In this document: one piece after another, positions 43,596 through 63,502 of the stretch | Position numbering within the stretch: position 1 is the stretch's first letter | Layout of the letters: the number at the start of each line of letters is the position of its first letter | Source of the DNA: a bacterium | GTDB lineage: Bacteria; Krumholzibacteriota; Krumholzibacteriia; G020349025 | Direction: 5' to 3' | NCBI GenBank assembly: GCA_031362565.1 | Contig: JANLSU010000048.1 | Coordinates: 8,696-72,695 of the forward strand | Length of the DNA stretch: 64,000 nt | The notes under the pieces: model-generated | Seen by the model: only the letters and a program-made list of their open reading frames with translations | The model's database searches: none | Told to the model about the DNA's origin: nothing | Position numbers and translations under genes: made by a program

Positions 43596-46334
43596 TCAGC
43601 CCGGGATGATCGCCCGCCGGACGTGGAGCAAGCGGCCGGTCGACGCGGCGAAGGCGTACACCAGCAATGCCACCAGATACACCAGGCCGACGGTCGCTGC
43701 CGGGGCATACCAGGCCGAAAAATCGGTGGTGAGCGGGAAGTACGCGACGAGCGTCGCGAGGACGAGATTCGTGCCGATGGCGGCGAACAGGCCGAGGCGC
43801 AAGAGCACCGTAACCAGAATGCCCATCCCGATGGCGCTCGCGACATACGTCACAACCCCGGCGCTCTCACCACCACTTCCCGCCAAGAAACTGAAAATGA
43901 GCCAAATGAGGACCGGCGCCACCGCCGGACGCCGTACCAGCATGCGCAGCGACACCACCATGAACAGCATCACCATCGGCTCGAAGATGACGCCGGTCTG
44001 CAAGTCGCAGAGCATTGCCAGGATGCCGGAGGTGCTCTGCAACGGCGCGATGAGCGTCGTCTCCGGAAGCGACGGCTCACCCATCCGCGCCGCAATCAGG
44101 TCCTTCAGCAAGAAGACCACCAGCATCAGAACGCCCGCCGCCATGCCAAGCAAGAGGTCGCGCCCGACGCGCGGGTCGCGCAGACGCCCCGCCAGAACTC
44201 GATTCCAGCCGATCAAACTGTCCGGCCAATGGCGCCGCACGTAAGGCTCGAGCCCGACATACAGCAGCCAGACGAGCGTCGAGATGAAGAGAATGACTCC
44301 CAAGCAAGGCACGAACAGCGACCACTCGTCGTTCGGGGATGAGGTGTGGTGTGCCGACAGCACCCAGGAGATCAGATTCAGCACCAAGAGGATGAGCGCG
44401 ATGCGCGTCGCGCCGCGGTAGTCGCCATGGCCGCGTTTGACGCTGCGGCGCGCCAGTGCTGCGGCACCCAGAATCAACAAGAACAGGAGAACACCTACAA
44501 AGGTCTGCGCACCGCGCTGTTGCGCCGTCAGTGGCCGTTTCGTCATGCGCTCGGCACGGGTCCACGGCGCGACAATCTGAAATGAACTGATGCGGCCCCG
44601 GTAGGCGCCCGCTTCGACACGCAGCGGCACGCCGGGCAATTCCGGATCCTCGCCGACCCAGGCGGCGCGCCGGTCGGCGAAGGCCTGCGGCACCCACTGT
44701 GGCTCGGCGGTCGAGAACAGCTTCGCGTCGAGACCCGCGGCCGTGAACGCCCGCGTCCAGTCGGGTTCCGATGCCGCCGTTGCCGATGAATCGATCTGCG
44801 CCGGCACGGCTTCGAGGCGGCGCAGGCGCCCGGCCGGATCCAGGACAACGCTCAGCATGCCGGAGTGCAACAGCGGCGGATCGGAGAGCGACACGGCACC
44901 GCCGGTCTCCGTCGTCAACGGCGCCATGCGCTCGGGGCTGCGGCGATACCAGAACGAGATCGCGGCCGTGCGCGGCACCGCGAGTCCATCCCACCGCTGT
45001 GCACCGTGCTGGTGATGACGCACCCAATCGATGTAGTCGACATCCGTGGTGAAACCGCGCGCGTGATCTCCCGGTGCATCCACGTAACCCAGGTCGGCTA
45101 CGATCTGAACGGCACGGTCTTCGAGAACCGCCGGCGGCTTGTGCAAAGGCACACGGTTGACGAGATACCTTTGGCCCGAGACGGCGAGCAGGAGGCCCAT
45201 TCCGGCCAATGCACCGGCGAGCACGCCCCAGGCGACACCGCGGCGCAATCCCCCGGCACCACCTGCCGCCGCAACGATTTCCGGTGACGGCATTTCGCCG
45301 GCCGCGAGCGCTGCCGCCAGCGGATCACCGCCCGGCAAGGATGCGGCGACCGCGAGTGCCGACTCCGGCCGCACCGCCGGGTCTTTGTCGAGACAACGCA
45401 GAATGGCGCGCTCGATGACCGGATCGAGGTCTTCGAGAATCGACGACGGATCCGCCGGCATCTTCTCGCGCTGCAACCGCTCGACTTCCAGAACCGAATC
45501 GGCGCGAAACGCCCGCCGGCCGGTGAAGATCTCGTACAACACGAGCCCGAGTGAATACACATCGCTGCGAATCGAGACGGTGTTGCTCGTCAGTTGCTCG
45601 GGGGCCATGTAGGCCGGCGTGCCGGCGCGCTTCTCTTGCGGGCCGGTGTGCTCGACGAGCACCGCCAAACCGAAGTCGGTGATGCGTACCTTGCCCTGCG
45701 CATCGATCATGATGTTGGCCGGCTTGAGATCGCGGTGCAGCACGCCGCGCTCGTGGGCGGCAGCCAGACCAGCGCAGAGTTGCCGCGCCACGTCGAGCGC
45801 CTTGTCCTCCGGCAGCCGTCCGATGCGGCGCAAGAGCGACCCCAGGTCGTCGCCCTCCACCAGTTCCATCGACAAATACGGCACGCCGTCGATGACACCG
45901 ACGTCGTAGACCCGGCAGACACTCGGATGCGAGACCTGGCGCGCGATACGCACTTCGCCGTAGAAACGCGCCTGGCGATCGGGGTTTTCCGCCAAATTGC
46001 GCGGCAGGAACTTGAGCGCCACCGCTTGCTCGAGCAAGAGGTCGTCGGCCCGGTACACTTCGCCCATGCCGCCCCGCCCCAGCAAGCCGATGATCCGGAA
46101 CCGGCCGCCGACGACGGAACCGGAGGCGAAACCACTGTCCTCGGAACTCTGCGATTGGACCCACGCCGCACTGGAGGCGATCGACGCATAGCGCGGCGAA
46201 CCGGGCGACATGGCGTTCGGGGCGTTGGTCAGAATCGTGCGTTCATTGTCGTCGCTCTGCAACGAGCTGCCGCACGCCGGGCAGAACGGGGTGAGACGGT
46301 CGAGTTCCTGCGAACACGTCGGACACTGCCGCAC
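43596..46334 (-). CDS. Hanks-type Ser/Thr protein kinase with N-terminal Zn ribbon, extracytoplasmic domain and multi-TM C-terminus
   Basis: CPTC..CPAC; LGRGGMGEVY, HRDLKPAN, DFGLA and GTPAYMAPE motifs; several TM helices. Start is uncertain. Confidence 0.92.
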   Translation of the reverse strand: MRQCPTCSQELDRLTPFCPACGSSLQSDDNERTILTNAPNAMSPGSPRYASIASSAAWVQSQSSEDSGFASGSVVGGRFRIIGLLGRGGMGEVYRADDLLLEQAVALKFLPRNLAENPDRQARFYGEVRIARQVSHPSVCRVYDVGVIDGVPYLSMELVEGDDLGSLLRRIGRLPEDKALDVARQLCAGLAAAHERGVLHRDLKPANIMIDAQGKVRITDFGLAVLVEHTGPQEKRAGTPAYMAPEQLTSNTVSIRSDVYSLGLVLYEIFTGRRAFRADSVLEVERLQREKMPADPSSILEDLDPVIERAILRCLDKDPAVRPESALAVAASLPGGDPLAAALAAGEMPSPEIVAAAGGAGGLRRGVAWGVLAGALAGMGLLLAVSGQRYLVNRVPLHKPPAVLEDRAVQIVADLGYVDAPGDHARGFTTDVDYIDWVRHHQHGAQRWDGLAVPRTAAISFWYRRSPERMAPLTTETGGAVSLSDPPLLHSGMLSVVLDPAGRLRRLEAVPAQIDSSATAASEPDWTRAFTAAGLDAKLFSTAEPQWVPQAFADRRAAWVGEDPELPGVPLRVEAGAYRGRISSFQIVAPWTRAERMTKRPLTAQQRGAQTFVGVLLFLLILGAAALARRSVKRGHGDYRGATRIALILLVLNLISWVLSAHHTSSPNDEWSLFVPCLGVILFISTLVWLLYVGLEPYVRRHWPDSLIGWNRVLAGRLRDPRVGRDLLLGMAAGVLMLVVFLLKDLIAARMGEPSLPETTLIAPLQSTSGILAMLCDLQTGVIFEPMVMLFMVVSLRMLVRRPAVAPVLIWLIFSFLAGSGGESAGVVTYVASAIGMGILVTVLLRLGLFAAIGTNLVLATLVAYFPLTTDFSAWYAPAATVGLVYLVALLVYAFAASTGRLLHVRRAIIPG

Positions 46335-46403
46335 GGCTTTCGACTCCAAGGCGAGGGAACGCCGTCCGGGGCTTTGGCGGCCCCGGACGGCTTTGCCCAA
46401 GGG

Positions 46404-49958: not shown

Positions 49959-50176
49959 GAACGATGCGGCGGTTATGCGTGCGCGGGTGCGCGTCATCGG
50001 GCGCGCTGAAGCCGGCTTCGATCAGCAACTGAACAACTAGCGAGCCGCAAACACCAGGTGCGACCAGCCCCCCTTTGAGATTCCAGCCGCCCCTTGGAGG
50101 AAGATCTCGGAATAGACGGGCGGGCGCCGTGGTTCCGAACAGGGGTTGGTCGCATTTGCTCCGAGAGCCTTTGAAA

Positions 50177-50647
50177 ATGAGGTGTGCCTTGAAATCAGCT
50201 GCCGTCGTGGTTCTTTTCGCTGCTGCGCTGGGAGTGGCTGGGTGCAAGAGTGACCCGGTACAGCCCATCATCAACAACAACGGGCCGGTCGCACCGACAA
50301 CAGTCCTACGGACTGGAACGTTGACCGCGGAGAACGGCACCCCCACCGCAGGTTCAGTTTCGGTCATCCGCGACGCAAACAACGACCAATGGGTCACGTT
50401 CGGATCAAATTTCACCTCGTCCTTCGCGACCGGAACCGTGACGGTTTATCTGGCGAAGGCTGCGTCGCGCATTGGCGATCAGCGCGTGCTCCCACCGCCT
50501 CCCGTACCGAACATCCTTGCGGCCGGTTTCGTGTCGTCGAACGGCGCTCAGGCGCTGAAGCTGCCGGCGTCGTCGACGGGCTTCGGCTACGTCGTGCTGT
50601 ACTGCGAGACTGCGGAGATCAATTTTGGCAACGCGCCCCTCAACTAG
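50177..50647 (+). CDS. DM13-like lipoprotein
   Basis: VAGC lipobox; VYLA..NGAQ..YVVLYC..INFGNAPL resembles DM13. Confidence 0.65.
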   Translation: MRCALKSAAVVVLFAAALGVAGCKSDPVQPIINNNGPVAPTTVLRTGTLTAENGTPTAGSVSVIRDANNDQWVTFGSNFTSSFATGTVTVYLAKAASRIGDQRVLPPPPVPNILAAGFVSSNGAQALKLPASSTGFGYVVLYCETAEINFGNAPLN

Positions 50648-50663
50648 GGTGCTCGGACTGTCG

Positions 50664-51440
50664 ATGAAAAGAGTCCAACGATTGCTCCCGATGTTCATCG
50701 TGGCAAAAGCGGCGATGGCAGAAGGCGCGACGCTACCGGTTGATCACCGCATGTTCGATGAGCTCCTGCATCGATATGTCACGCCGGCAGGTGTCAGCTA
50801 CCAGGACTGGTCGCAGCACCCCGAGGACATTCAGAAACTGCGCCGGTACTTGAGCGGACTCCAATCCGCAACCCCGTCGCAGATGGGAGCCGAGCCGGCG
50901 CTTGCCTACTGGATCAACCTCTACAACGCTGCGACACTGAACTTGGTGCTGGAGAAGTATCCCATCAAGAGCATCAAGGACATCGGGGCGCCATCATCGT
51001 CGCCTTGGGAAAAGACCGTGGCCACGGTCGAGGGGCGGCCACTCTCGCTCAGTCAAATCGAAAACGACGTGATCCGGCCGAAATTTCACGCCGCTCGGAG
51101 CCATTTCGCGCTGAATTGCGCCGCCCGCGGTTGCCCACCGATTCGGCCGGAAGCCTACGTCGGTGAACGCCTCCGCAGCCAGTTGGAGGATCAAACCAAG
51201 CGCTTCCTGGGTGACAGGAAGACGAACTTTGTCGACGCCACGGGGACGATTTGGCTGTCGAAGATCTTCGAGTGGTATGCAGCCGACTTCGAGGCGGCGA
51301 GTGGATCCGTCTGGGCGTTCGTAGCGCCGTATCTCGAGGGGTCCCCGGCGGGCGCAAGGAGCGCCTCGAAGTCGCCGTTGCGGTACACAGAATACGACTG
51401 GACTCTCAACGAGGCCACGAACAAGCCGCCAAAAGACTAG
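50664..51440 (+). CDS. DUF547 domain protein
   Basis: AYWINLYNA, HFALNCAARGCP, LSKIFEWY and YDWTLN motifs. Confidence 0.9.
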   Translation: MKRVQRLLPMFIVAKAAMAEGATLPVDHRMFDELLHRYVTPAGVSYQDWSQHPEDIQKLRRYLSGLQSATPSQMGAEPALAYWINLYNAATLNLVLEKYPIKSIKDIGAPSSSPWEKTVATVEGRPLSLSQIENDVIRPKFHAARSHFALNCAARGCPPIRPEAYVGERLRSQLEDQTKRFLGDRKTNFVDATGTIWLSKIFEWYAADFEAASGSVWAFVAPYLEGSPAGARSASKSPLRYTEYDWTLNEATNKPPKD

Positions 51441-51499
51441 GCGTGCGGATGCATTCGCGCGCAAGCTGCCGGAACACTTTGCAAACAAAGGCTGCATGA

Positions 51500-52348
51500 A
51501 TGAAACCGCTTGTTGCCCTGACGCTGGCTTGCAGCTTTCTCCTGCTCGGCGGCGAGGCCCACGCGGGTGGCGGCTGGGCAAGGCGGCCGCACTCCCTTTA
51601 CGTGAAACTTGCGGCCACGACCTTGACTTCCGATGCCTTTCACATCAGCAACGGCACCGTCGTCCGAACGGCGGACTTCAACACTCAGACCCTGCAGCTG
51701 TACGTTGAATACGGAGTCCTCAACCGGCTCTCGGCCGTCCTGGACGCGCCGGTCTTCAAACGCGCCGCCTACGTCACAGCAAGCTCCGCGAGTGGGATCG
51801 GTGACCTGGGGCTAACGCTGAAATACGCCATCCTGACCGGGCGATTCCCGGCGTCGTTGGGGATCGGCGCCGAATTTCCGACCGGAAACCGGCAGGCCTT
51901 TGGGGTCAACAAGAACAATCCCGAAGTGCGGATCGTCTTGCCGACCGGAGACGGTGAATTCAACACCTGGCTCCGCACTTATGTTTCGCATTCGTTTCAC
52001 CTCTGGCCGGGGTTCGCGTCGATCGATGTCGGCTACAATCTTCGGACGATGGGCTTCACGAATCAATATCAAGCCAACCTGCAGTTGGGTTACAAGGCAT
52101 CGAACGCCGTCTGGGTGTTTGGCGACCTCCGTCGGTTTGCGACCGCGGGCACACCGCGAGGCGGTGCCGTATTCTCGTCCATCGGCATCGGCGAAGGCGT
52201 CGAATACACATCCTATGGCATGGGGCTCTCCGTCGAAGTGGCGCCACATACGGATCTGACGGGCAACGTCTCCGGTGGTCTGGGGAGGGCCAAGAACATC
52301 TATTCGGGGCTCAATCTCGGATTTGGCATCGCAGTCGATCTGCCATAA
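51500..52348 (+). CDS. Outer-membrane beta-barrel protein (transporter-like)
   Basis: Signal peptide; YVEYG, GIGDLGL and EFPTG motifs; amphipathic strands. Confidence 0.65.
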   Translation: MKPLVALTLACSFLLLGGEAHAGGGWARRPHSLYVKLAATTLTSDAFHISNGTVVRTADFNTQTLQLYVEYGVLNRLSAVLDAPVFKRAAYVTASSASGIGDLGLTLKYAILTGRFPASLGIGAEFPTGNRQAFGVNKNNPEVRIVLPTGDGEFNTWLRTYVSHSFHLWPGFASIDVGYNLRTMGFTNQYQANLQLGYKASNAVWVFGDLRRFATAGTPRGGAVFSSIGIGEGVEYTSYGMGLSVEVAPHTDLTGNVSGGLGRAKNIYSGLNLGFGIAVDLP

Positions 52349-52481
52349 TCGGCAGAGCGGCGGGAATTTCTGAGGACCGCCCGGGGTTCGGGAATGTGGT
52401 GACTGGTCGGCGTATTCACGGGCCACTCGGTTCACCGGTTTGCCGGCCCGGTAGGCCAACGCTCGAAGGGGAGTGATTCCG

Positions 52482-53357
52482 ATGCACGGTCGTGTTCTTC
52501 GGTATGGTCTCGGCATCGCGCTCGTGGGATTTCTGATCTCCGGCGCCGCGAATGCCGCCCTCCTCGAGGGGCAGACCGCCCCCAACTTCACCAAGGACCA
52601 GCTCGATGCCCCTGCCCCGGCGGCGCGCTCCCTGTCCAACTACGCCGGCAAGGTCGTGGTGCTCTTCCTCCAGGGTTACAACTGACCCTTCTGCCTCACC
52701 GACGGTCCGTCGGTGCAGCAGGACATCTGGACGGCCTACAACAACTCTCACCCGGGACAGGTCCAGGTGATTGGCGTCGATCTCTACAACGGTACCGCCG
52801 CCCAGGAGCGGTCGTTCGGCAATGCCACGGGCGCGACGTATCCTCTACTCCTGCGGGGCGCCGACGGCGCGGCGGGCGTTGGAAACTTGAACACGCTGTA
52901 TATGCCGACGTCGGGCGTCACTTACGACAACTACGTTGTGATCAACAAGCACGGCATCGTGCGATACCACGCTGCGAACCGCTACGCGCACGGCAACCGG
53001 TACCACTTGAACGAGATCCGGGGGACAGTCGACTCGCTCGTGACGAACCCGACGGACGTTGGCGACGGGCCCGGCCCGCTCGGATGGTCGCTTCGTGTCA
53101 CCCCGAGCCCGTTCCATGCCACGACCTCGATCGAGTTCGTGAACGATGGACCTGCAACAACGGCTCGCCTGCGCGTCTTCAACCTTGCGGGACGCGAGAT
53201 CGCGGCTCGGTCCGCGAGCGCGGTGCCGCGGGGACCCGGCCACCTGTCGTGGGATGGGCGGGATACCGCCGGGAATCGGGTCGCCTCGGGCGTGTATCTG
53301 GTGCGAGTCGAGGTCGGAAGGGTCCGACTCACCAGTCGCGTGGTGTATCTCGAATGA
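52482..53357 (+). CDS. Secreted selenocysteine-containing redoxin (AhpC/TSA-TlpA fold, UxxC) with FlgD/T9SS-like C-terminal domain
   Basis: ORFs 52473-52685 and 52713-53357 are in the same frame. TGA 52683-52685 reads GKVVVLFLQGYN-U-PFC, at the CxxC position, and a SECIS-like hairpin follows. Confidence 0.82.
52689..52723 (+). promoter_or_regulatory. Bacterial SECIS-like element
   Basis: Upper stem CACCGACG (52697-52704) / CGTCGGTG (52708-52715) with a G-containing loop; lower stem TTCTGC/GCAGGA; immediately 3' of the UGA. Confidence 0.72.
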
Positions 53358-53926
53358 GACTGGCTGTCGCACGGATTGCAGCGGTTGTCGCGGCGGCCGT
53401 CACGATCCTTCTTGGAGTCGCAACCGGCTCCGTCGCGGGGCCGCTCGAAAAAAGACCGGCGCCCCGTTTCGAGGTCCGGAGCTTGAGTGGTGAACACCTG
53501 CGCTTGGTGGATCTCCTGGCGCACGGTCCGGTGCTCCTCGACTTTTGGGCCACCTGGTGTAAACCGTGCTTGGCGTCGCTCCCGGAACTCGAAAAGCTGC
53601 ACCAGCGCTATCGCGCGCGCGGGCTCACCGTGCTCGGGATCTCCGTCGATGGACCTCGGAACTTCGTCAAGGTGAAACCCTTCGTCCAGAAACTTCACCT
53701 CACCTTCCCCGTCGCCCTCGACGAGGACGGCTCACTGCAAGCGAAGTACTCCGTTGGCGGCTACCCGACGAGCGTGCTCATCGGGGCTGACGGTGCGGTG
53801 GATTTCCTCTTGGAGGGCTACCAGCCCGGTAACCTCGACGCGCTGGAAAAGAGGCTCCGGTCCCTGCTCGATGGGGGCGCAAGGGATTCCGCCGCGCAAG
53901 AATCGCCGCCGGATTCAACGCGATGA
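53354..53926 (+). CDS. TlpA-family thiol:disulfide oxidoreductase
   Basis: DFWATWCKPC and YPTSVLI motifs; signal/TM anchor; ATGA coupling on both sides. Confidence 0.93.
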   Translation: MRLAVARIAAVVAAAVTILLGVATGSVAGPLEKRPAPRFEVRSLSGEHLRLVDLLAHGPVLLDFWATWCKPCLASLPELEKLHQRYRARGLTVLGISVDGPRNFVKVKPFVQKLHLTFPVALDEDGSLQAKYSVGGYPTSVLIGADGAVDFLLEGYQPGNLDALEKRLRSLLDGGARDSAAQESPPDSTR

Positions 53927-55479
53927 CCCGCTGCGTTCGATGCCGAGTCGGGCGAGCGTTGCTCGCTTCCATGCTTGGAATTTTCACTCTTCTCGCCCCC
54001 AAGCCCGCACTCGCTCAGCTTTCGCTCTACAACCTGCTCGTGGGCCAGGCCGGCAACGAACCCTTCGCCACTCCGTCCGACCGGCTGTCGCTCTACGACC
54101 GGTTGCACGTCGATCTCGATCTCCCCAACGTACGCGCGGGGCTCCGTTGGGAAACCAATCGGAATAGCCTCGAACTCGATCCGTACGGCGCCGTGACGTT
54201 TCGCTACGTCGAGTTCACGGACAAGAGGGGCACGCTCCGCCTCGGAAATTTCTACACCATCCTGGGGCGGGGTATCGTGCACCGCTCGTTCGATTTGCCA
54301 GCGGTGGTTCTGGACCAGCCAGGCACCCAAGCCCGTTACGCCCCGTCGCGAGATGTCGACGGGGCGCTGGGCGAAGGCCGGCTAGGGCCTGTTGGAGCGC
54401 GCGGATTCGTGGGGCGACCGAGCGGTGGCGATGTCTCGCCGGCTTCGGGGGATGCGCGCTATGGAAACCTCGAGGCCGGATCTGAGGTCGCTGCGGATCT
54501 GTGGCGGGGGACGCGGCTCGGCGCCACCTATCTCCGGGCTTCCGGGCCGGCCGGTTCGCGCTCGGAACGAGGCTCAGGGTTCGTACAGGCGGATCTACTG
54601 CAGCTCTTCGGCACGAGTGTCGTGTCTCTGCCGTTGTACTTCGAGTATGCGCAGGTCGACGGCTCGCTCGGTGATTGGTTCCGATTCGACACCGCCGACG
54701 ACGCGCCGCACGCGCTCTATGTTTCCAGCAGTTTGCTCGTAGACCCGATTAGTATCGCACTCGAATGGAAGGACTATCGGGGCTACCGTTTCGGCACCAA
54801 CGATCCTCCCTCGCTCGTCCGCGAGCACTCCGAGCCACTCCTCAATCGGAACACGCACGTTCTGAACGCGGAGAGCGAGACGGGATACCAAGTCGAGGCT
54901 GTCGTGAACGCAACGCGCCAGCTCTCCTTCACCGGCAACCTGAGTCGGGCGGACGGCGACTTCGCGCGTCGCAGCTCACGCTTCCAGGAACGTTACTTGG
55001 AGGCCCACTGGGGCGCACTGGAGCCCGGGGGCTTGGAAGCCGGCGCTTTCTGGAGCAGCGGCCGGGACCAGTTCGTGTTCATCCAGCGCCGCCGGATCAC
55101 CGGCGCGGGCGTCGTCGTGCCGTTGCCCGCCAAAGTACAACTGACGGCGGAACTGGAGCGCCAGGCGGCGACTCGGACCCCCGAGGTGTCCTTTGTCGAT
55201 CACTACGGTTCGCTCCAGTTGGCCCGCGGCAACGCAAGTTTGGCCGTGGTGTACGAGCGCTCCACCGATCCAGAGCAGGAGGCCCCGGACGACGCCGCAA
55301 GCGCCGAAGTGAACCCGCGCCATTTTGTCGCGATGGTGGGTGGCGTGCGTCTCTCCGACCACCACAACATGACGCTGTTCGTCGGCGAGCGCCGCGGGGG
55401 ACGCGCCTGCACGGCGGGCACTTGCTACGAGGTCCGTTCGTTCCGCGGCGCGGAACTCCGCCTCGTCTCCCGATTCTAG
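53923..55479 (+). CDS. DUF6029-like outer-membrane beta-barrel with C-terminal Cys pair
   Basis: Signal peptide; GNFYTILGRG and EWKDY motifs; C-terminus GERRGGRACTAGTCYEVRSFRG...SRF. Confidence 0.72.
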   Translation: MTRCVRCRVGRALLASMLGIFTLLAPKPALAQLSLYNLLVGQAGNEPFATPSDRLSLYDRLHVDLDLPNVRAGLRWETNRNSLELDPYGAVTFRYVEFTDKRGTLRLGNFYTILGRGIVHRSFDLPAVVLDQPGTQARYAPSRDVDGALGEGRLGPVGARGFVGRPSGGDVSPASGDARYGNLEAGSEVAADLWRGTRLGATYLRASGPAGSRSERGSGFVQADLLQLFGTSVVSLPLYFEYAQVDGSLGDWFRFDTADDAPHALYVSSSLLVDPISIALEWKDYRGYRFGTNDPPSLVREHSEPLLNRNTHVLNAESETGYQVEAVVNATRQLSFTGNLSRADGDFARRSSRFQERYLEAHWGALEPGGLEAGAFWSSGRDQFVFIQRRRITGAGVVVPLPAKVQLTAELERQAATRTPEVSFVDHYGSLQLARGNASLAVVYERSTDPEQEAPDDAASAEVNPRHFVAMVGGVRLSDHHNMTLFVGERRGGRACTAGTCYEVRSFRGAELRLVSRF

Positions 55480-60285: not shown

Positions 60286-60948
60286 TCAGGCCGGCGCCTG
60301 CGCGCGCACGAACTCCGCCACCTCATGGCCGAGAAAATGTTCCGCCCAGCGCACCCGGTCGCCGGCTGCCGACGCGCCTTGCACGGGCTGCAGGTCCTGC
60401 GTCTGCACCGACAGGAAGAGATGCTGCGGATCGCGGAAGAACGGTTCGATCCGCAACTCCACCGACTTGCCTTGCGCGTGGGCCGGAAACACCAGTTTGA
60501 CTCCGATGCCGGCACAGGGCGCACCAAGCGCACCGACATCGCTGCGCCCAAAGCGCAGCAGCCGCGATTCGAGGAAGTCCTGCGCCGCGATGCCGTCGAT
60601 CGGCCACAAGGCTTCGACGACGACTTCCTGCATGACGAAAATGCCCGGCGTAAAAGCGTCCCAAAAATCCTGCACCACATGCTCGAAGTCGCGCACCGTC
60701 TCGTAGGTCGATTGGTTGTTCGGAATGCGTTCTTTGTATGCGAGACGATCCGGTCCGAGGCGGGTCTGCGAGCCATCGTCGTTCATGAGCCTGGCGCCGT
60801 CGGGCAAGAACTGAAATTGCGCGTACGGCTTATAGGCGCACACAGTGCTATAGAGGCCCGTGAGCTTGCCGCGTTCCAGCCGTACGGTCGGCGGGTACAA
60901 GAGAACACTCTGCAGCGCGACGGGCTGGATCCGGTCCGGATTGAGCAC
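60286..60948 (-). CDS. Hypothetical cytoplasmic protein
   Basis: Globular-looking sequence (RIEPFFRDP); GTG 60948 preceded by GAAGGCGGAG. Start is uncertain. Confidence 0.65.
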   Translation of the reverse strand: MLNPDRIQPVALQSVLLYPPTVRLERGKLTGLYSTVCAYKPYAQFQFLPDGARLMNDDGSQTRLGPDRLAYKERIPNNQSTYETVRDFEHVVQDFWDAFTPGIFVMQEVVVEALWPIDGIAAQDFLESRLLRFGRSDVGALGAPCAGIGVKLVFPAHAQGKSVELRIEPFFRDPQHLFLSVQTQDLQPVQGASAAGDRVRWAEHFLGHEVAEFVRAQAPA

Positions 60949-61098
60949 GAGATCTCCGCCTTCGGCGAGCAACCACGACGGCGCCGCGCGTGGAACGCGC
61001 GCCAGGACCACCACATCCACCCCCGCCCGTGTGGCCATGGTAGGCCGCTGCATCCCAGCCCGGCAACCGGGGCCCGTCCAGGCGCCTGAATCAGACCC

Positions 61099-61114
61099 TG
61101 GCATGTGCGTTGCT
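61099..61114 (+). promoter_or_regulatory. Putative sigma54 promoter
   Basis: TGGCATGTGCGTTGCT is a near-perfect -24/-12 consensus; predicted +1 is about 61124-61126. Confidence 0.65.
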
Positions 61115-61123
61115 GGTTCTTCA

Positions 61124-63502
61124 ATGATGCGCAACAACCTCCTGACCTCGGCGACCAGATTCCACGACGACCAGTCTCTCATCTTGGTGGGACTGGGCGG
61201 CTTCGGCCGTTCCGTGCTGCATTTGCTGCGGCAGGAGTTCGACCGCCTCCGCGTTCCCGACGACCGGGTCTTCTATCTCGCCGTCGACGCCGAACATTCG
61301 CCGCCGGACACCGGCGACGCCGGCCCGGACTCCGACCTCTTGGTGCCACTCCGGCCGTTCCAGGCGGACGTCTACTTGGCAGCGCGCGAAAACGAGTCGC
61401 TGCGCGATGCTGTAACGCATTTGCCCGAAGCCGCGTGGTCCGACCGCCCAGCCGCAAGCCAGGGCCTGCCCGGGGCCGGATTCGTGGCGTTCCATCGCTA
61501 CGACGAAACCCTCGTCACCAACCGGATGCGCGCCCTGGTAGACGAAGCGCGCGCCAAGAACCAGAGCGGCAAGATCAAGTGCCTCGTCGTGTGCAGCATG
61601 GCGGGCGCCACGGGCAGCGGCATGGTGGTGCCGTTCTTGTTCCGGATCCGCGATCACTTGCGCGAGAAAAAAGCCCGCCTCGAAGTCTTCTTGGCGACGA
61701 GCGAGGGACATGCCGCCTCACCAGGCGTCGCCACCGAGGACGTCGAACGCAACTGCACCGCCAACGCGATGCTGTGGGACCAGGTTCTGCTCGGGACGCG
61801 CGAGTTCACCTATCCGGGTAAAGAAGGCGTCCGTGAAGACAAGGTCTTCCGCGGACCACTGCAGCACCGCACTTGGATTTTCTCCGGTGGGCTCGGCGCG
61901 ACGACGTATCAGCATCCGGTCGTCGCGTCCATCATCGCGAGTTGCATCTCGACGTTGGAATTGACCCGGCTGGGTGCGTACCTGGACGGCGACCGGGTGA
62001 ACTACTCGGAAGAGATTCTGGAGCGTACCTGGAAGGGTGAAAGTGGCGGCGCCCACCCGACGGCACTGCTGGCGATGAATGTCGCGGGGCTGCGCGCCGA
62101 CTGTTTTCCGCCGCTCTTCCATCTGCGCGCCACCCGGGCCTTCATCGATGAAGTTTCACGATCTTTGCCGGTGGCGACGGAATTGCAGCTGCGCACCGCG
62201 GTCGACGTCTGCTTGAGCGATGCGCGGCTCACCGACGACGCGATTGTCGAGGACTTGGGCGTCGGCGCCCGGCCGGTGACGCGCGACGAGGTGACGGCAG
62301 CGCGCTTGCCACAGGACAAATTGCATGCCTGGCTCTCGGAGCGCCTCGAAGAGGACGTTGGACGCTTGGTCGCGGTCGCCAACGGCCAGCACGAACCGCC
62401 GCGCACCGACGTGCTGCTCGATCGCGCCCGCCTGGCGATCAACGTTCGCGCCTCCGCCATCGCCAATGGGCCCGAGGGTTACTTGCCGGGGGCGATTCTC
62501 TTCTATCAATCGCTGCAGAAGCACCTCGACACGGCGCGGCAGTCGGTGCAGCACCGCGCCGAGTTGGCGCGCAACGAACTCGGTACGACGCCGAATCGCG
62601 ACCGTTTGAATGTGCTGCTCGACCGGCTGCGGCGCGATACGGTGCCCGACGAGGGCGGCCGGTTCGGGGTCGTGGAGCGTTTTGTCGCGACGCTGACCGT
62701 GTCGGTGCCGACCCAAGTCCGCAAGATTCTCGAGGTCGCAGCGGAGATTCGCGGCCATGCGCAGGTCCTGGCCGCGGGCACCGTGCTGGCCCACGTCTAC
62801 GAACGCCTCGCCCACCACTGCGAGAAGCAGCGCGAGGAACTCCAAGGCCGGCTCTATCAATTGAATACCGTGGCGTCGGTGTGTATGCGCGAGGAAGAAC
62901 TGATCCAGCGTTCGACCCGCGCCGCGTTCACGTATCAAAGGGCGCGCTTCGAGCCGCTCGTGGAACACTTGTGGACCGTGCTGCGTGAGCGCGTGGCGCT
63001 GCCGGGGCCGTCCGAAGTGATCGCGCGTATTGGCGGCGACCTGCCGTCATTCCTCGGCACCGAGCCGCAAATCCTCGAACGGCTCCTGGAGGCCGTAGAG
63101 GTCGATGGCAACGCGTTGGCGGCTGCCGCCGACGAAGTGCTGGCGCACGACCCCATGGTGCGTGACGTTCTGAAGGAATCGCTAGCGCAGTTCTTCCCCA
63201 CCATCCAGGTGGACCGCGACCGCTTCCCGACTCTGGATACGGTGCGGGCGCGATTCGTGTTGTGCACTCGAACCCAGTACGAAGCGCACCGCGACGACGT
63301 CTTCGAGGGTTACCACCACTTGGAAACCGACAACCCTTTCAACGTGCTCTTGACCGAACACGAGGAAGGGCTCCCCTTCGCTGCTCTGTCTTACGTGCAT
63401 CGCACCCATGAACGCTACAAGGTGCTCGTCGAACAGGGACGCGCCGCACTGGGACATGCCACGAGTGATCTTGCTTCGACGTTGCCGCCGCTCGACGCGT
63501 GA
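61124..63502 (+). CDS. Tubulin/FtsZ-superfamily (Tubulin_2-like) protein with long helical C-terminus
   Basis: LILVGLGGFG, YLAVD and CSMAGATGSG (variant of the GGGTGSG signature); coiled-coil-rich tail. Confidence 0.8.
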   Translation: MMRNNLLTSATRFHDDQSLILVGLGGFGRSVLHLLRQEFDRLRVPDDRVFYLAVDAEHSPPDTGDAGPDSDLLVPLRPFQADVYLAARENESLRDAVTHLPEAAWSDRPAASQGLPGAGFVAFHRYDETLVTNRMRALVDEARAKNQSGKIKCLVVCSMAGATGSGMVVPFLFRIRDHLREKKARLEVFLATSEGHAASPGVATEDVERNCTANAMLWDQVLLGTREFTYPGKEGVREDKVFRGPLQHRTWIFSGGLGATTYQHPVVASIIASCISTLELTRLGAYLDGDRVNYSEEILERTWKGESGGAHPTALLAMNVAGLRADCFPPLFHLRATRAFIDEVSRSLPVATELQLRTAVDVCLSDARLTDDAIVEDLGVGARPVTRDEVTAARLPQDKLHAWLSERLEEDVGRLVAVANGQHEPPRTDVLLDRARLAINVRASAIANGPEGYLPGAILFYQSLQKHLDTARQSVQHRAELARNELGTTPNRDRLNVLLDRLRRDTVPDEGGRFGVVERFVATLTVSVPTQVRKILEVAAEIRGHAQVLAAGTVLAHVYERLAHHCEKQREELQGRLYQLNTVASVCMREEELIQRSTRAAFTYQRARFEPLVEHLWTVLRERVALPGPSEVIARIGGDLPSFLGTEPQILERLLEAVEVDGNALAAAADEVLAHDPMVRDVLKESLAQFFPTIQVDRDRFPTLDTVRARFVLCTRTQYEAHRDDVFEGYHHLETDNPFNVLLTEHEEGLPFAALSYVHRTHERYKVLVEQGRAALGHATSDLASTLPPLDA

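Follow-up and report, generated by a model that had tools for sequence, protein, structure and literature searches.

Does an in-frame TGA codon in a 64-kb stretch of bacterial DNA (contig JANLSU010000048.1 of assembly GCA_031362565.1) end a gene, or is it read as selenocysteine (Sec, U)? We call the whole stretch that was analysed the window; coordinates are positions in it, on the + strand unless stated otherwise. The question arises at 52482-53357, where translation with table 11 gives two open reading frames (ORFs), 52473-52685 and 52713-53357, in one and the same frame. We consider it likely, taken as a whole, that this locus encodes one exported redoxin with a UxxC motif, recoded through a Sec insertion sequence (SECIS), with a C-terminal sorting tail for an SprA/PorU-type route, and that it forms part of a three-gene cassette. 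The features at the centre of the question are:

52482-53357, + strand: proposed complete selenoprotein gene, 291 codons plus a TGA stop, with one internal Sec codon; a single frame when the TGA is read through.
52466-52473, + strand: Shine-Dalgarno-like AAGGGGAG, read from the sequence, 8 nt 5' of the ATG at 52482.
52683-52694, + strand: predicted active-site UxxC, U68-P-F-C71, with the Sec codon TGA 52683-52685 at its first position; C71 is invariant.

The sole internal in-frame TGA lies at 52683-52685, and past it the frame runs on without interruption until the terminal TGA at 53355-53357, so that the product has 291 residues. Around the break, the read-through translation is ...LFLQGYN-U-PFC..., and AAGGGGAG is a putative ribosome-binding site for the whole frame. 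Pfam analysis of the joined protein gave three matches above their cut-offs: AhpC-TSA (residues 30-162), which spans the TGA, Redoxin and FlgD_ig (residues 214-277). A search of the window's own genome with stops read through also recovered the gene (G000:C11:61177-62049, '1 TGA'). An earlier note on this DNA had claimed that the ORF track cuts the gene into two in-frame halves, that the TGA stands where the first Cys of a CxxC motif belongs, and that the joined 291-residue protein carries a tail like that of FlgD or of type IX secretion system (T9SS) cargo; our analysis agreed on all three points.

To follow the codon through the family, we searched 5.8 billion proteins and obtained 264 matches, the best 120 of which comprised 63 full-length and 57 short sequences. 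Among these best 120, all 63 full-length homologues had Cys at both positions 68 and 71, and 56 of the 57 short ones began at query residues 72-82, just past the TGA. The short entries are downstream halves that gene finders called after a stop, and the 214-residue downstream piece of the present gene is stored in this way as a database protein (P0002); automated pipelines do miss this gene, as had been predicted. When the family was collapsed into representatives, 169 clusters matched at E<=1e-30, a count that includes unrelated multi-Ig proteins; the true family comprises on the order of a hundred clusters at 50% identity, many of them stored truncated.

Genomes of the same phylum were then searched with stops read through. 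Of the 201 sampled, 21 (own genome included) matched at E<=1e-20, each with exactly one in-frame TGA; 24 copies were extracted from them, and in every one the TGA stood at the GYxUxxC position. Scanning species-representative genomes brought in another 30 loci, with 38-100% identity to the first sequence of the query alignment; the titles of most name Candidatus Eisenbacteria, those of two Limnocylindria, and those of one each Planctomycetota and Methylomirabilota. The final set covered 51 loci with 60 copies of the gene, in which the codon at this position was TGA in 48, TGC or TGT in 12 and anything else in none, although these homologues are phylogenetically related and the counts are therefore not independent. 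The earlier note had named Trp or another non-Cys residue at this codon as a warning sign; only TGA or Cys was found.

Contigs from four sequencing runs, which include a near-identical strain from a second sample as well as more distant relatives, showed no difference at 52683-52685; the comparison is at contig level, and the assembly may itself derive from the best run. Contigs of divergent relatives from three other runs aligned to the gene only at 52641-52727, around the active site and the hairpin described below, which is the gene's most nucleotide-conserved stretch.

These data bear on the explanation that the TGA is a nonsense mutation or an assembly error, leaving a pseudogene or two genes. 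The table 11 split, the database entry P0002 and the modest z-score of the downstream hairpin would fit it, but the TGA recurs at the same codon in copies down to ~30% identity, including those of 20 other genomes of the phylum; both halves are conserved in protein, one Pfam domain crosses the TGA, the hairpin covaries and segregates with the TGA, the contigs agree and the Sec machinery is complete. We regard this explanation as hardly credible; pseudogene, assembly error and two separate genes were all rejected on the comparative data.

The genome assembly (5.4 Mb, 133 contigs, 100% complete by marker genes) encodes what Sec insertion needs. SelA (403 bits), SelD (383 bits) and tRNA-Sec (78.8 bits) all scored above their cut-offs, as did the SelB winged-helix domain within a 686-residue frame, and ARAGORN assigned the tRNA the anticodon TCA. 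The presence of selA, selB, selD and tRNA-Sec had been set as a check, and all four were found. The selD gene (G000:C6:945-1859, locus L011) contains one in-frame TGA, which makes the genome's selenophosphate synthetase a selenoprotein as well. The tRNA-Sec model also matched a second time, at G000:C70:109509-109606 (L003), with 52.6 bits against a gathering score of 47; ARAGORN calls no tRNA at that place.

A genome-wide reassignment of TGA, for example to Trp or Gly, would also keep the frame open, and the open frame itself is all that speaks for it. TGA is the plain stop of this very gene, of its two downstream neighbours and of several homologues, at conserved C-termini; the alternative residue in homologues is Cys, never Trp or Gly; and tRNA-Sec (TCA), selA, selB and selD are present. 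On these three grounds, TGA stops, Cys-only alternatives and Sec machinery, reassignment was rejected, and we give it next to no probability. Since translation of this gene finishes at a normal TGA stop, recoding appears to be local and SECIS-dependent, with the code itself unchanged.

We examined the RNA structure downstream of the TGA, where the following element was found:

52689-52723, + strand: SECIS-like element with a lower 6-bp stem, a 2x2 internal loop, an upper 8-bp stem and an apical GUC loop.

In the upper stem, CACCGACG (52697-52704) pairs with CGTCGGTG (52708-52715) around the loop GTC (52705-52707). The perfect 8-bp stem begins 11 nt past the TGA, as the earlier note had reported together with the G-containing loop, and the distance from the UGA to the loop is 19 nt. 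RNAfold added the 6-bp lower stem and gave -21.3 kcal/mol for the whole element. In the bacterial SECIS of the Escherichia coli fdhF type, a hairpin with G/U in its apical loop lies in the coding region directly 3' of the UGA, and bSECISearch uses a UGA-to-loop spacing of 16-37 nt. The present element shares the position directly 3' of the UGA within coding sequence, the G/U in the apical loop and a spacing inside that range; it differs in its 3-nt apical loop (GUC), its perfect 8-bp stem and the lack of a bulged U in the upper stem.

We then compared the hairpin within the close subfamily (the present gene and L033-L062), which holds 25 Sec copies and 12 Cys copies, by scoring a fixed register, nt 15-22 with nt 26-33, in which the U of UGA is nt 1. 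All eight pairs were formed in 22 of the 25 Sec copies (21 with the loop GUC, one with GUG) against 1 of the 12 Cys copies, which mostly encode the same L-x-D-G-P-S-V peptide with other codons. Across the 25 Sec sequences, 97.8% of the cells were paired, and compensatory changes occurred in three of the eight pairs. The outermost pair changed from C-G to G-C five times, at third positions of Leu and Val codons, so that among Sec forms CUC..GUG is swapped for CUG..GUC at synonymous sites; the other compensatory changes were C-G to A-U and C-G to G-C. None of 500 shuffles reached the covariation score, and registers slid along the alignment were 18-58% paired. The shuffle control ignores relatedness, whereas the slid-register control and the contrast between Sec and Cys copies are independent of it.

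More distant Sec forms (~30-36% identity to the present protein) have other hairpins, such as CCG-GUA-CGG with GGCC arms or GGGCGG/CGGGU/CCGUCC. Their UGA-to-loop distance was 16-37 nt in 22 of 23, and a G occupied one of the first two loop bases in 18 of 23. The mean energy of the best hairpin was -14.3 kcal/mol in close Sec forms, -11.9 in distant Sec forms and -10.3 in Cys forms.

Several results count against this hairpin as a SECIS. As a single sequence its fold is unremarkable (z = -1.69, with 13 of 200 shuffles folding equally well in this GC-rich DNA), and the case therefore rests on comparison. A scan of 52000-54000 against Rfam at E<=10 found no SECIS family, only three chance-level matches. 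In three of the 25 close Sec forms the fixed register is interrupted, and one Cys form, L034 (TGT), keeps the hairpin perfectly. The hairpin also lies in codons of a conserved peptide, so its conservation is partly protein-level. L034 (L034:376-423, compared with the Sec form L035:3106-3153) is ~60% identical to its Sec-form neighbours; it seems to have changed from Sec to Cys, or the reverse, so recently that the hairpin has not yet decayed. A chance hairpin is excluded by the comparative data, though not by the single sequence, and in the alignments the element behaves as a SECIS. The TGA/Cys-only codon, the covarying hairpin and the Sec machinery all favour recoding of the TGA as Sec, as originally proposed, and on this comparative footing the gene is very probably a genuine, conserved selenoprotein.

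What does this selenoprotein do? Its first domain was assigned from Pfam, a profile search against PDB sequences and Foldseek:

52569-52967, + strand: TlpA/ResA-like thioredoxin-fold (AhpC-TSA/Redoxin) domain, residues 30-162.

Pfam gave 35.9 bits for AhpC-TSA (PF00578; cut-off 26) and 34.2 bits for Redoxin. An AlphaFold2 (AF2) model was built from a 49-row alignment with U written as C, and had a mean predicted local distance difference test (pLDDT) score of 90.1. In this model, residue 68 stands directly before helix 69-89, and a short low-confidence linker near residue 195 leads to a seven-strand beta-sandwich (203-289). The PDB-sequence profile search placed 2ls5 (2.6e-14), 3kcm and ResA first for this domain, with U68 and C71 aligned to their WCxxC. 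Foldseek listed 2ls5, the DipZ C-terminal domain and ResA (target-normalised TM-score, TMt, 0.82-0.85), followed by AhpE and Bcp, and its best matches 2ls5 and ResA spanned TMt 0.75-0.85. U68 aligns to the first Cys of WCxxC and precedes helix 69-89; therefore Sec would occupy the nucleophilic position of a thioredoxin-type pair.

Family models placed the protein less exactly. NCBIfam scores were far under the cut-offs for ResA (19.9 against 170 bits), DsbE (15 against 359) and PrxU (13.4 against 270), and for ResA and PrxU in particular this weakens the functional assignment, as the reaction is not fixed by homology. The TlpA model matched only two of the 49 relatives. No curated NCBIfam selenoprotein model reached its cut-off on the present protein or on the 49-member family; weak matches to PrxU and to the TUGYCR redoxin model occurred in one relative each. 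An invariant Asp, D149, adjoins the aligned position of the Pro in the VPE of 3kcm, and by the alignment it appears to be one departure of this redoxin family from ResA. We file the redoxin as TlpA/ResA-like in mechanism, outside the ResA, DsbE and PrxU families.

The protein could instead be a selenocysteine peroxidase of peroxiredoxin (Prx)-like type that clears peroxides at the cell surface. AhpC-TSA is the best Pfam family, Foldseek lists AhpE, Bcp and an alkyl hydroperoxide reductase at TMt 0.68-0.80, D149 sits beside the thioredoxin-type Pro position in the 3kcm alignment, and Sec-containing Prx are described in passages of PMC13188914. Yet GYNUPFC places UxxC at the thioredoxin CxxC site and does not match the Prx patterns TxxU or PxxxTxxC, families that the review tables, as far as their consulted parts go, keep apart; PrxU scored far below its cut-off, and the best matches in both sequence and fold are of TlpA/ResA type. 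A peroxidase is thus distinctly improbable, and the protein is probably a thiol/selenol-disulfide oxidoreductase with a TlpA-like fold, serving as a reductase or isomerase.

The two ends of the protein bear on where it would act:

52482-52556, + strand: predicted signal peptide of the Sec (translocon) type, residues 1-25, with a basic n-region, a hydrophobic core and A-N-A before the predicted cleavage site.
53097-53354, + strand: C-terminal beta-sandwich, FlgD-Ig-like and apparently equivalent to a T9SS type-A sorting domain, residues 206-291 (PF13860, TIGR04183).

Consistent with a signal peptide at residues 1-25, helix 2-18 of the AF2 model stands apart from the fold. At the other end, PF13860 (FlgD_ig) scored 39.1 bits. 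TIGR04183 scored 22.1 bits against a cut-off of 23 in hmmscan, over residues 206-288 of 291, and 23.0 bits, flagged as over the cut-off, in the genome scan; 41 of the 49 family members matched it at E<=0.001. The domain also matches FlgD structures and the C-terminal domains of PorZ (5m11) and PorU (6za2). Identity as a FlgD hook-capping protein was rejected, as only the Ig-like domain matches and the FlgD equivalogs gave 15-22 bits against cut-offs of 230-333.

Parts of a corresponding export pathway are encoded in the genome. SprA reached 448.9 bits when the pieces within its frame were added up (165.5 for the best of them alone, against a cut-off of 200), and three PorU sortases scored 483-539 bits against a cut-off of 420. 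At least 149 frames of the genome carry a TIGR04183 domain (150 of the 206 candidates were scored).

The selenoprotein gene is followed by two overlapping genes:

53354-53926, + strand: TlpA/ResA-like thioredoxin with the motif WCKPC and, at its N-terminus, a hydrophobic anchor or signal; the ATG start codon shares bases with the selenoprotein gene's TGA stop (ATGA).
53923-55479, + strand: DUF6029 protein of 518 residues, a signal helix and a large beta-barrel ending in ...SRF (PF19494, 36.1 bits); its start overlaps the upstream stop (ATGA).

The product of 53354-53926 scored 84.6 bits with Pfam AhpC-TSA and 100 bits, under the cut-off, with NCBIfam ResA. Homologues of the TlpA-like gene lie downstream in 39 of 50 related loci (E<=1e-5; two matches weak) and DUF6029 homologues in 34 of 50, many of these loci ending at contig edges. 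The AF2 model of the DUF6029 protein (pLDDT 80) is all-beta, and its best Foldseek matches were the FimD/PapC usher pores (query-normalised TM-score, TMq, ~0.5). Its Cys pair C496/C501 is invariant in 19 sequences and lies in a conserved glycine-rich hairpin near the C-terminus, which is suggestive in a gene that neighbours two redoxins. Elsewhere the genome encodes one DsbD/CcdA-type membrane protein, which could supply reductant to the periplasm.

Tandem redoxin paralogues are common in related loci (L043, L047, L058, L059, L060, L020, L023, L028). L043 has three Sec copies, L059 one Cys and one Sec copy, and L058 and L060 two Cys copies each; in every such locus the paralogues precede just one TlpA-like/DUF6029 pair.

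Directly upstream, at 50075-52348 (+ strand), three tightly packed genes encode a lipoprotein, a DUF547 protein and a 282-residue signal-bearing protein without a family; DM13 ('electron transfer') matches the lipoprotein weakly, at 20.9 bits where the cut-off is 25. Searches for the DUF547 and 282-residue proteins in the related loci at E<=1e-5 gave no match, and an ad hoc look at the upstream ORFs of those loci showed no common neighbour; therefore these genes were excluded from the system. Further away in the window, and unrelated to the selenoprotein, are an 880-residue frame with a Tubulin_2 (bacterial tubulin-like) match at 60860-63502 (+ strand) and, at 43596-46400 (- strand), a gene for a 934-residue Ser/Thr kinase beside two M16 peptidase genes.

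With the cassette in view, the location of the redoxin can be weighed. Several results tell against export across the outer membrane. The sorting-domain score lies at or just below its cut-off. The best PorV-like match, which adjoins a PorU gene on contig C85, reached 88.4 bits against a cut-off of 250, and GldK gave weak partial matches only (best 64 bits against 350). The GldM and GldL models matched nothing in the genome scan, in which the controls matched nowhere either, so that its sensitivity is uncertain. A canonical T9SS motor is thus not demonstrated, and the protein could remain periplasmic. To our knowledge, no reductant is known outside the outer membrane.

On that alternative the selenoprotein is real, but its C-terminal Ig-like domain is no secretion signal; the protein would not leave the periplasm, or would be anchored to the DUF6029 barrel, and would work there with the TlpA-like partner in the manner of periplasmic TlpA/DsbE-type reductases. 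Besides the threshold TIGR04183 match, the undetected GldL and GldM and the low GldK and PorV scores, it draws on the higher score of Pfam FlgD_ig, a general Ig-like fold, over TIGR04183, on the TlpA-like partner being periplasmic by its own signal or anchor, and on reductant from a DsbD/CcdA-type protein reaching the periplasm only; two Sec copies in L028, moreover, end before any C-terminal domain. What speaks against it is that the domain stands at the extreme C-terminus, as in sorting domains, that so many proteins of the genome share this terminal domain, that SprA (summed) and all three PorU exceed their cut-offs, and that TIGR04183 recurs in 41 of 49 relatives while PorU and PorZ C-terminal domains match the domain itself. 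A purely periplasmic protein is therefore unlikely, though by no means far-fetched. The tandem copies in question (L028:458-505 and L028:1204-1251, in genome G101 of the same family as the window's genome) are ~190 residues long and end in TGA; they lack the sorting domain, and therefore not every family member is built for sorting.

The earlier note had placed the selenoenzyme at the cell surface or in the medium. The sorting-type tail of that proposal is backed by a threshold-level match, and SprA and PorU are encoded in the genome; with GldL and GldM undetected, the export step itself stays a prediction. From the features of the protein and the genome, we hold it highly likely that the redoxin is extracytoplasmic, and we somewhat favour its being cargo of an SprA/PorU-type pathway.

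How does the protein relate to known systems? UxxC selenoproteins of Prx-like or thioredoxin (Trx)-like type are a long-known class, catalogued, according to passages of PMC2398784 and PMC13188914, since the first prokaryotic selenoproteome surveys. By the convention of domain plus motif set out in parts of PMC9312934, and compared by description only (PMC9312934, PMC13188914, PMC2398784), the present gene would be filed under 'Prx-like thiol:disulfide oxidoreductase'. With those proteins (PF00578, UxxC/UxxU) and with the 'Prx-like 1-3' and 'Trx-like' groups of marine metagenomes it shares the PF00578/PF08534 thioredoxin fold, the UxxC Sec, Cys-form homologues and a downstream SECIS hairpin; it adds the signal peptide, the C-terminal T9SS-type domain and the TlpA-like/DUF6029 cassette. 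Main-text passages of PMC2398784, PMC13188914 and PMC9312934 mention fusions of Prx-like selenoproteins with other domains, none of them with a sorting domain.

ResA, TlpA and DsbE (CcmG) share with the present protein the fold, the active site at the N-terminus of the first long helix and an extracytoplasmic location, which for our protein is predicted. They differ in having WCxxC where it has GYxUxxC, and Cys where it would have Sec, and in lacking the extra sorting domain, and in the alignment to 3kcm the protein has D149 next to the VPE Pro position; their family models, as noted, scored below cut-off. A parallel in architecture is HBP35 of Porphyromonas gingivalis, a T9SS cargo whose thioredoxin activity, as a recombinant protein, needs two active-site Cys (passages of PMC2907840). 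Compared by that description, both proteins carry a domain with a thioredoxin motif and, behind it, a conserved C-terminal domain that serves surface attachment in HBP35 and is predicted to do so in ours. HBP35 differs in having Cys in place of Sec, in binding hemin and in coming from Bacteroidota, and TlpA-like/DUF6029 partners are not known for it.

MccSep of Geobacter sulfurreducens is a periplasmic selenoprotein whose signal-peptide cleavage was shown experimentally, according to the parts consulted of 10.1101/2025.11.18.688581. On that partial account it has in common with our protein a UGA-encoded Sec, a downstream SECIS-like hairpin, an N-terminal signal peptide and mis-annotation as two genes; it is a multihaem cytochrome kept in the periplasm, whereas ours is a small redoxin with a predicted outer-membrane sorting domain. 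Signal-bearing selenoproteins of the SAO system also appear in passages of 10.1101/2022.07.06.499078. Given MccSep, a location outside the cytoplasm does not by itself make a selenoprotein unusual.

Searches of the full-text literature outside subscription journals and supplements returned no relevant paper linking a selenoprotein with type IX secretion, and nothing on Eisenbacteria with selenocysteine. The recoding and the chemistry are already textbook. As far as these searches reach, the fusion to a sorting domain, the three-gene cassette and the lineage look new.

Taken together, the data suggest the following course of events. The hairpin at 52689-52723 would recruit SelB carrying Sec-tRNA(Sec), and Sec would be inserted at the UGA (52683-52685) in place of termination. 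The Sec translocon would take the protein into the periplasm, where we infer that its signal peptide is cleaved. An SprA/PorU-type pathway would then recognise the C-terminal domain and bring the protein out, either onto the external side of the outer membrane or into the medium, the actual export being likewise a prediction. There it may act as a selenol/thiol-disulfide oxidoreductase, either a reductase or an isomerase, whose cycle would include a selenenylsulfide formed with C71. Its two partners would be made by translational coupling: a periplasmic TlpA-like thioredoxin, the likely reductant, and the DUF6029 outer-membrane barrel. These partners, the redox direction and the substrate are inferred.

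A more elaborate version, which we offer tentatively and regard as doubtful, is an outer-membrane redox module. In it, a TlpA-like protein fed by DsbD/CcdA would charge the redoxin, which would be placed on or through the outer membrane by SprA/PorU or by the usher-like DUF6029 protein, with C496/C501 as relay or substrate. If such a module exists, it would hold the first selenoenzyme shown to be displayed on the bacterial surface, and these sediment bacteria would gain a reductant of high reactivity for extracellular disulfides, polysulfides or oxidants.

For the family as a whole, the redoxin offers a natural experiment on the exchange of Sec and Cys, in which the same peptide is encoded in both ways, sometimes in tandem, and the hairpin stays with the TGA and is lost with Cys. 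For the DUF6029 barrel of the outer membrane, which has no known role, the cassette offers a first clue to function. Public annotation truncates the family, as the short database entries illustrate, and existing counts therefore fall short of the redox capacity and selenium use of these sediment bacteria. Should the predicted export take place, selenocysteine chemistry would reach as far as the bacterial cell surface, and would do so in an uncultured lineage that has received little study.

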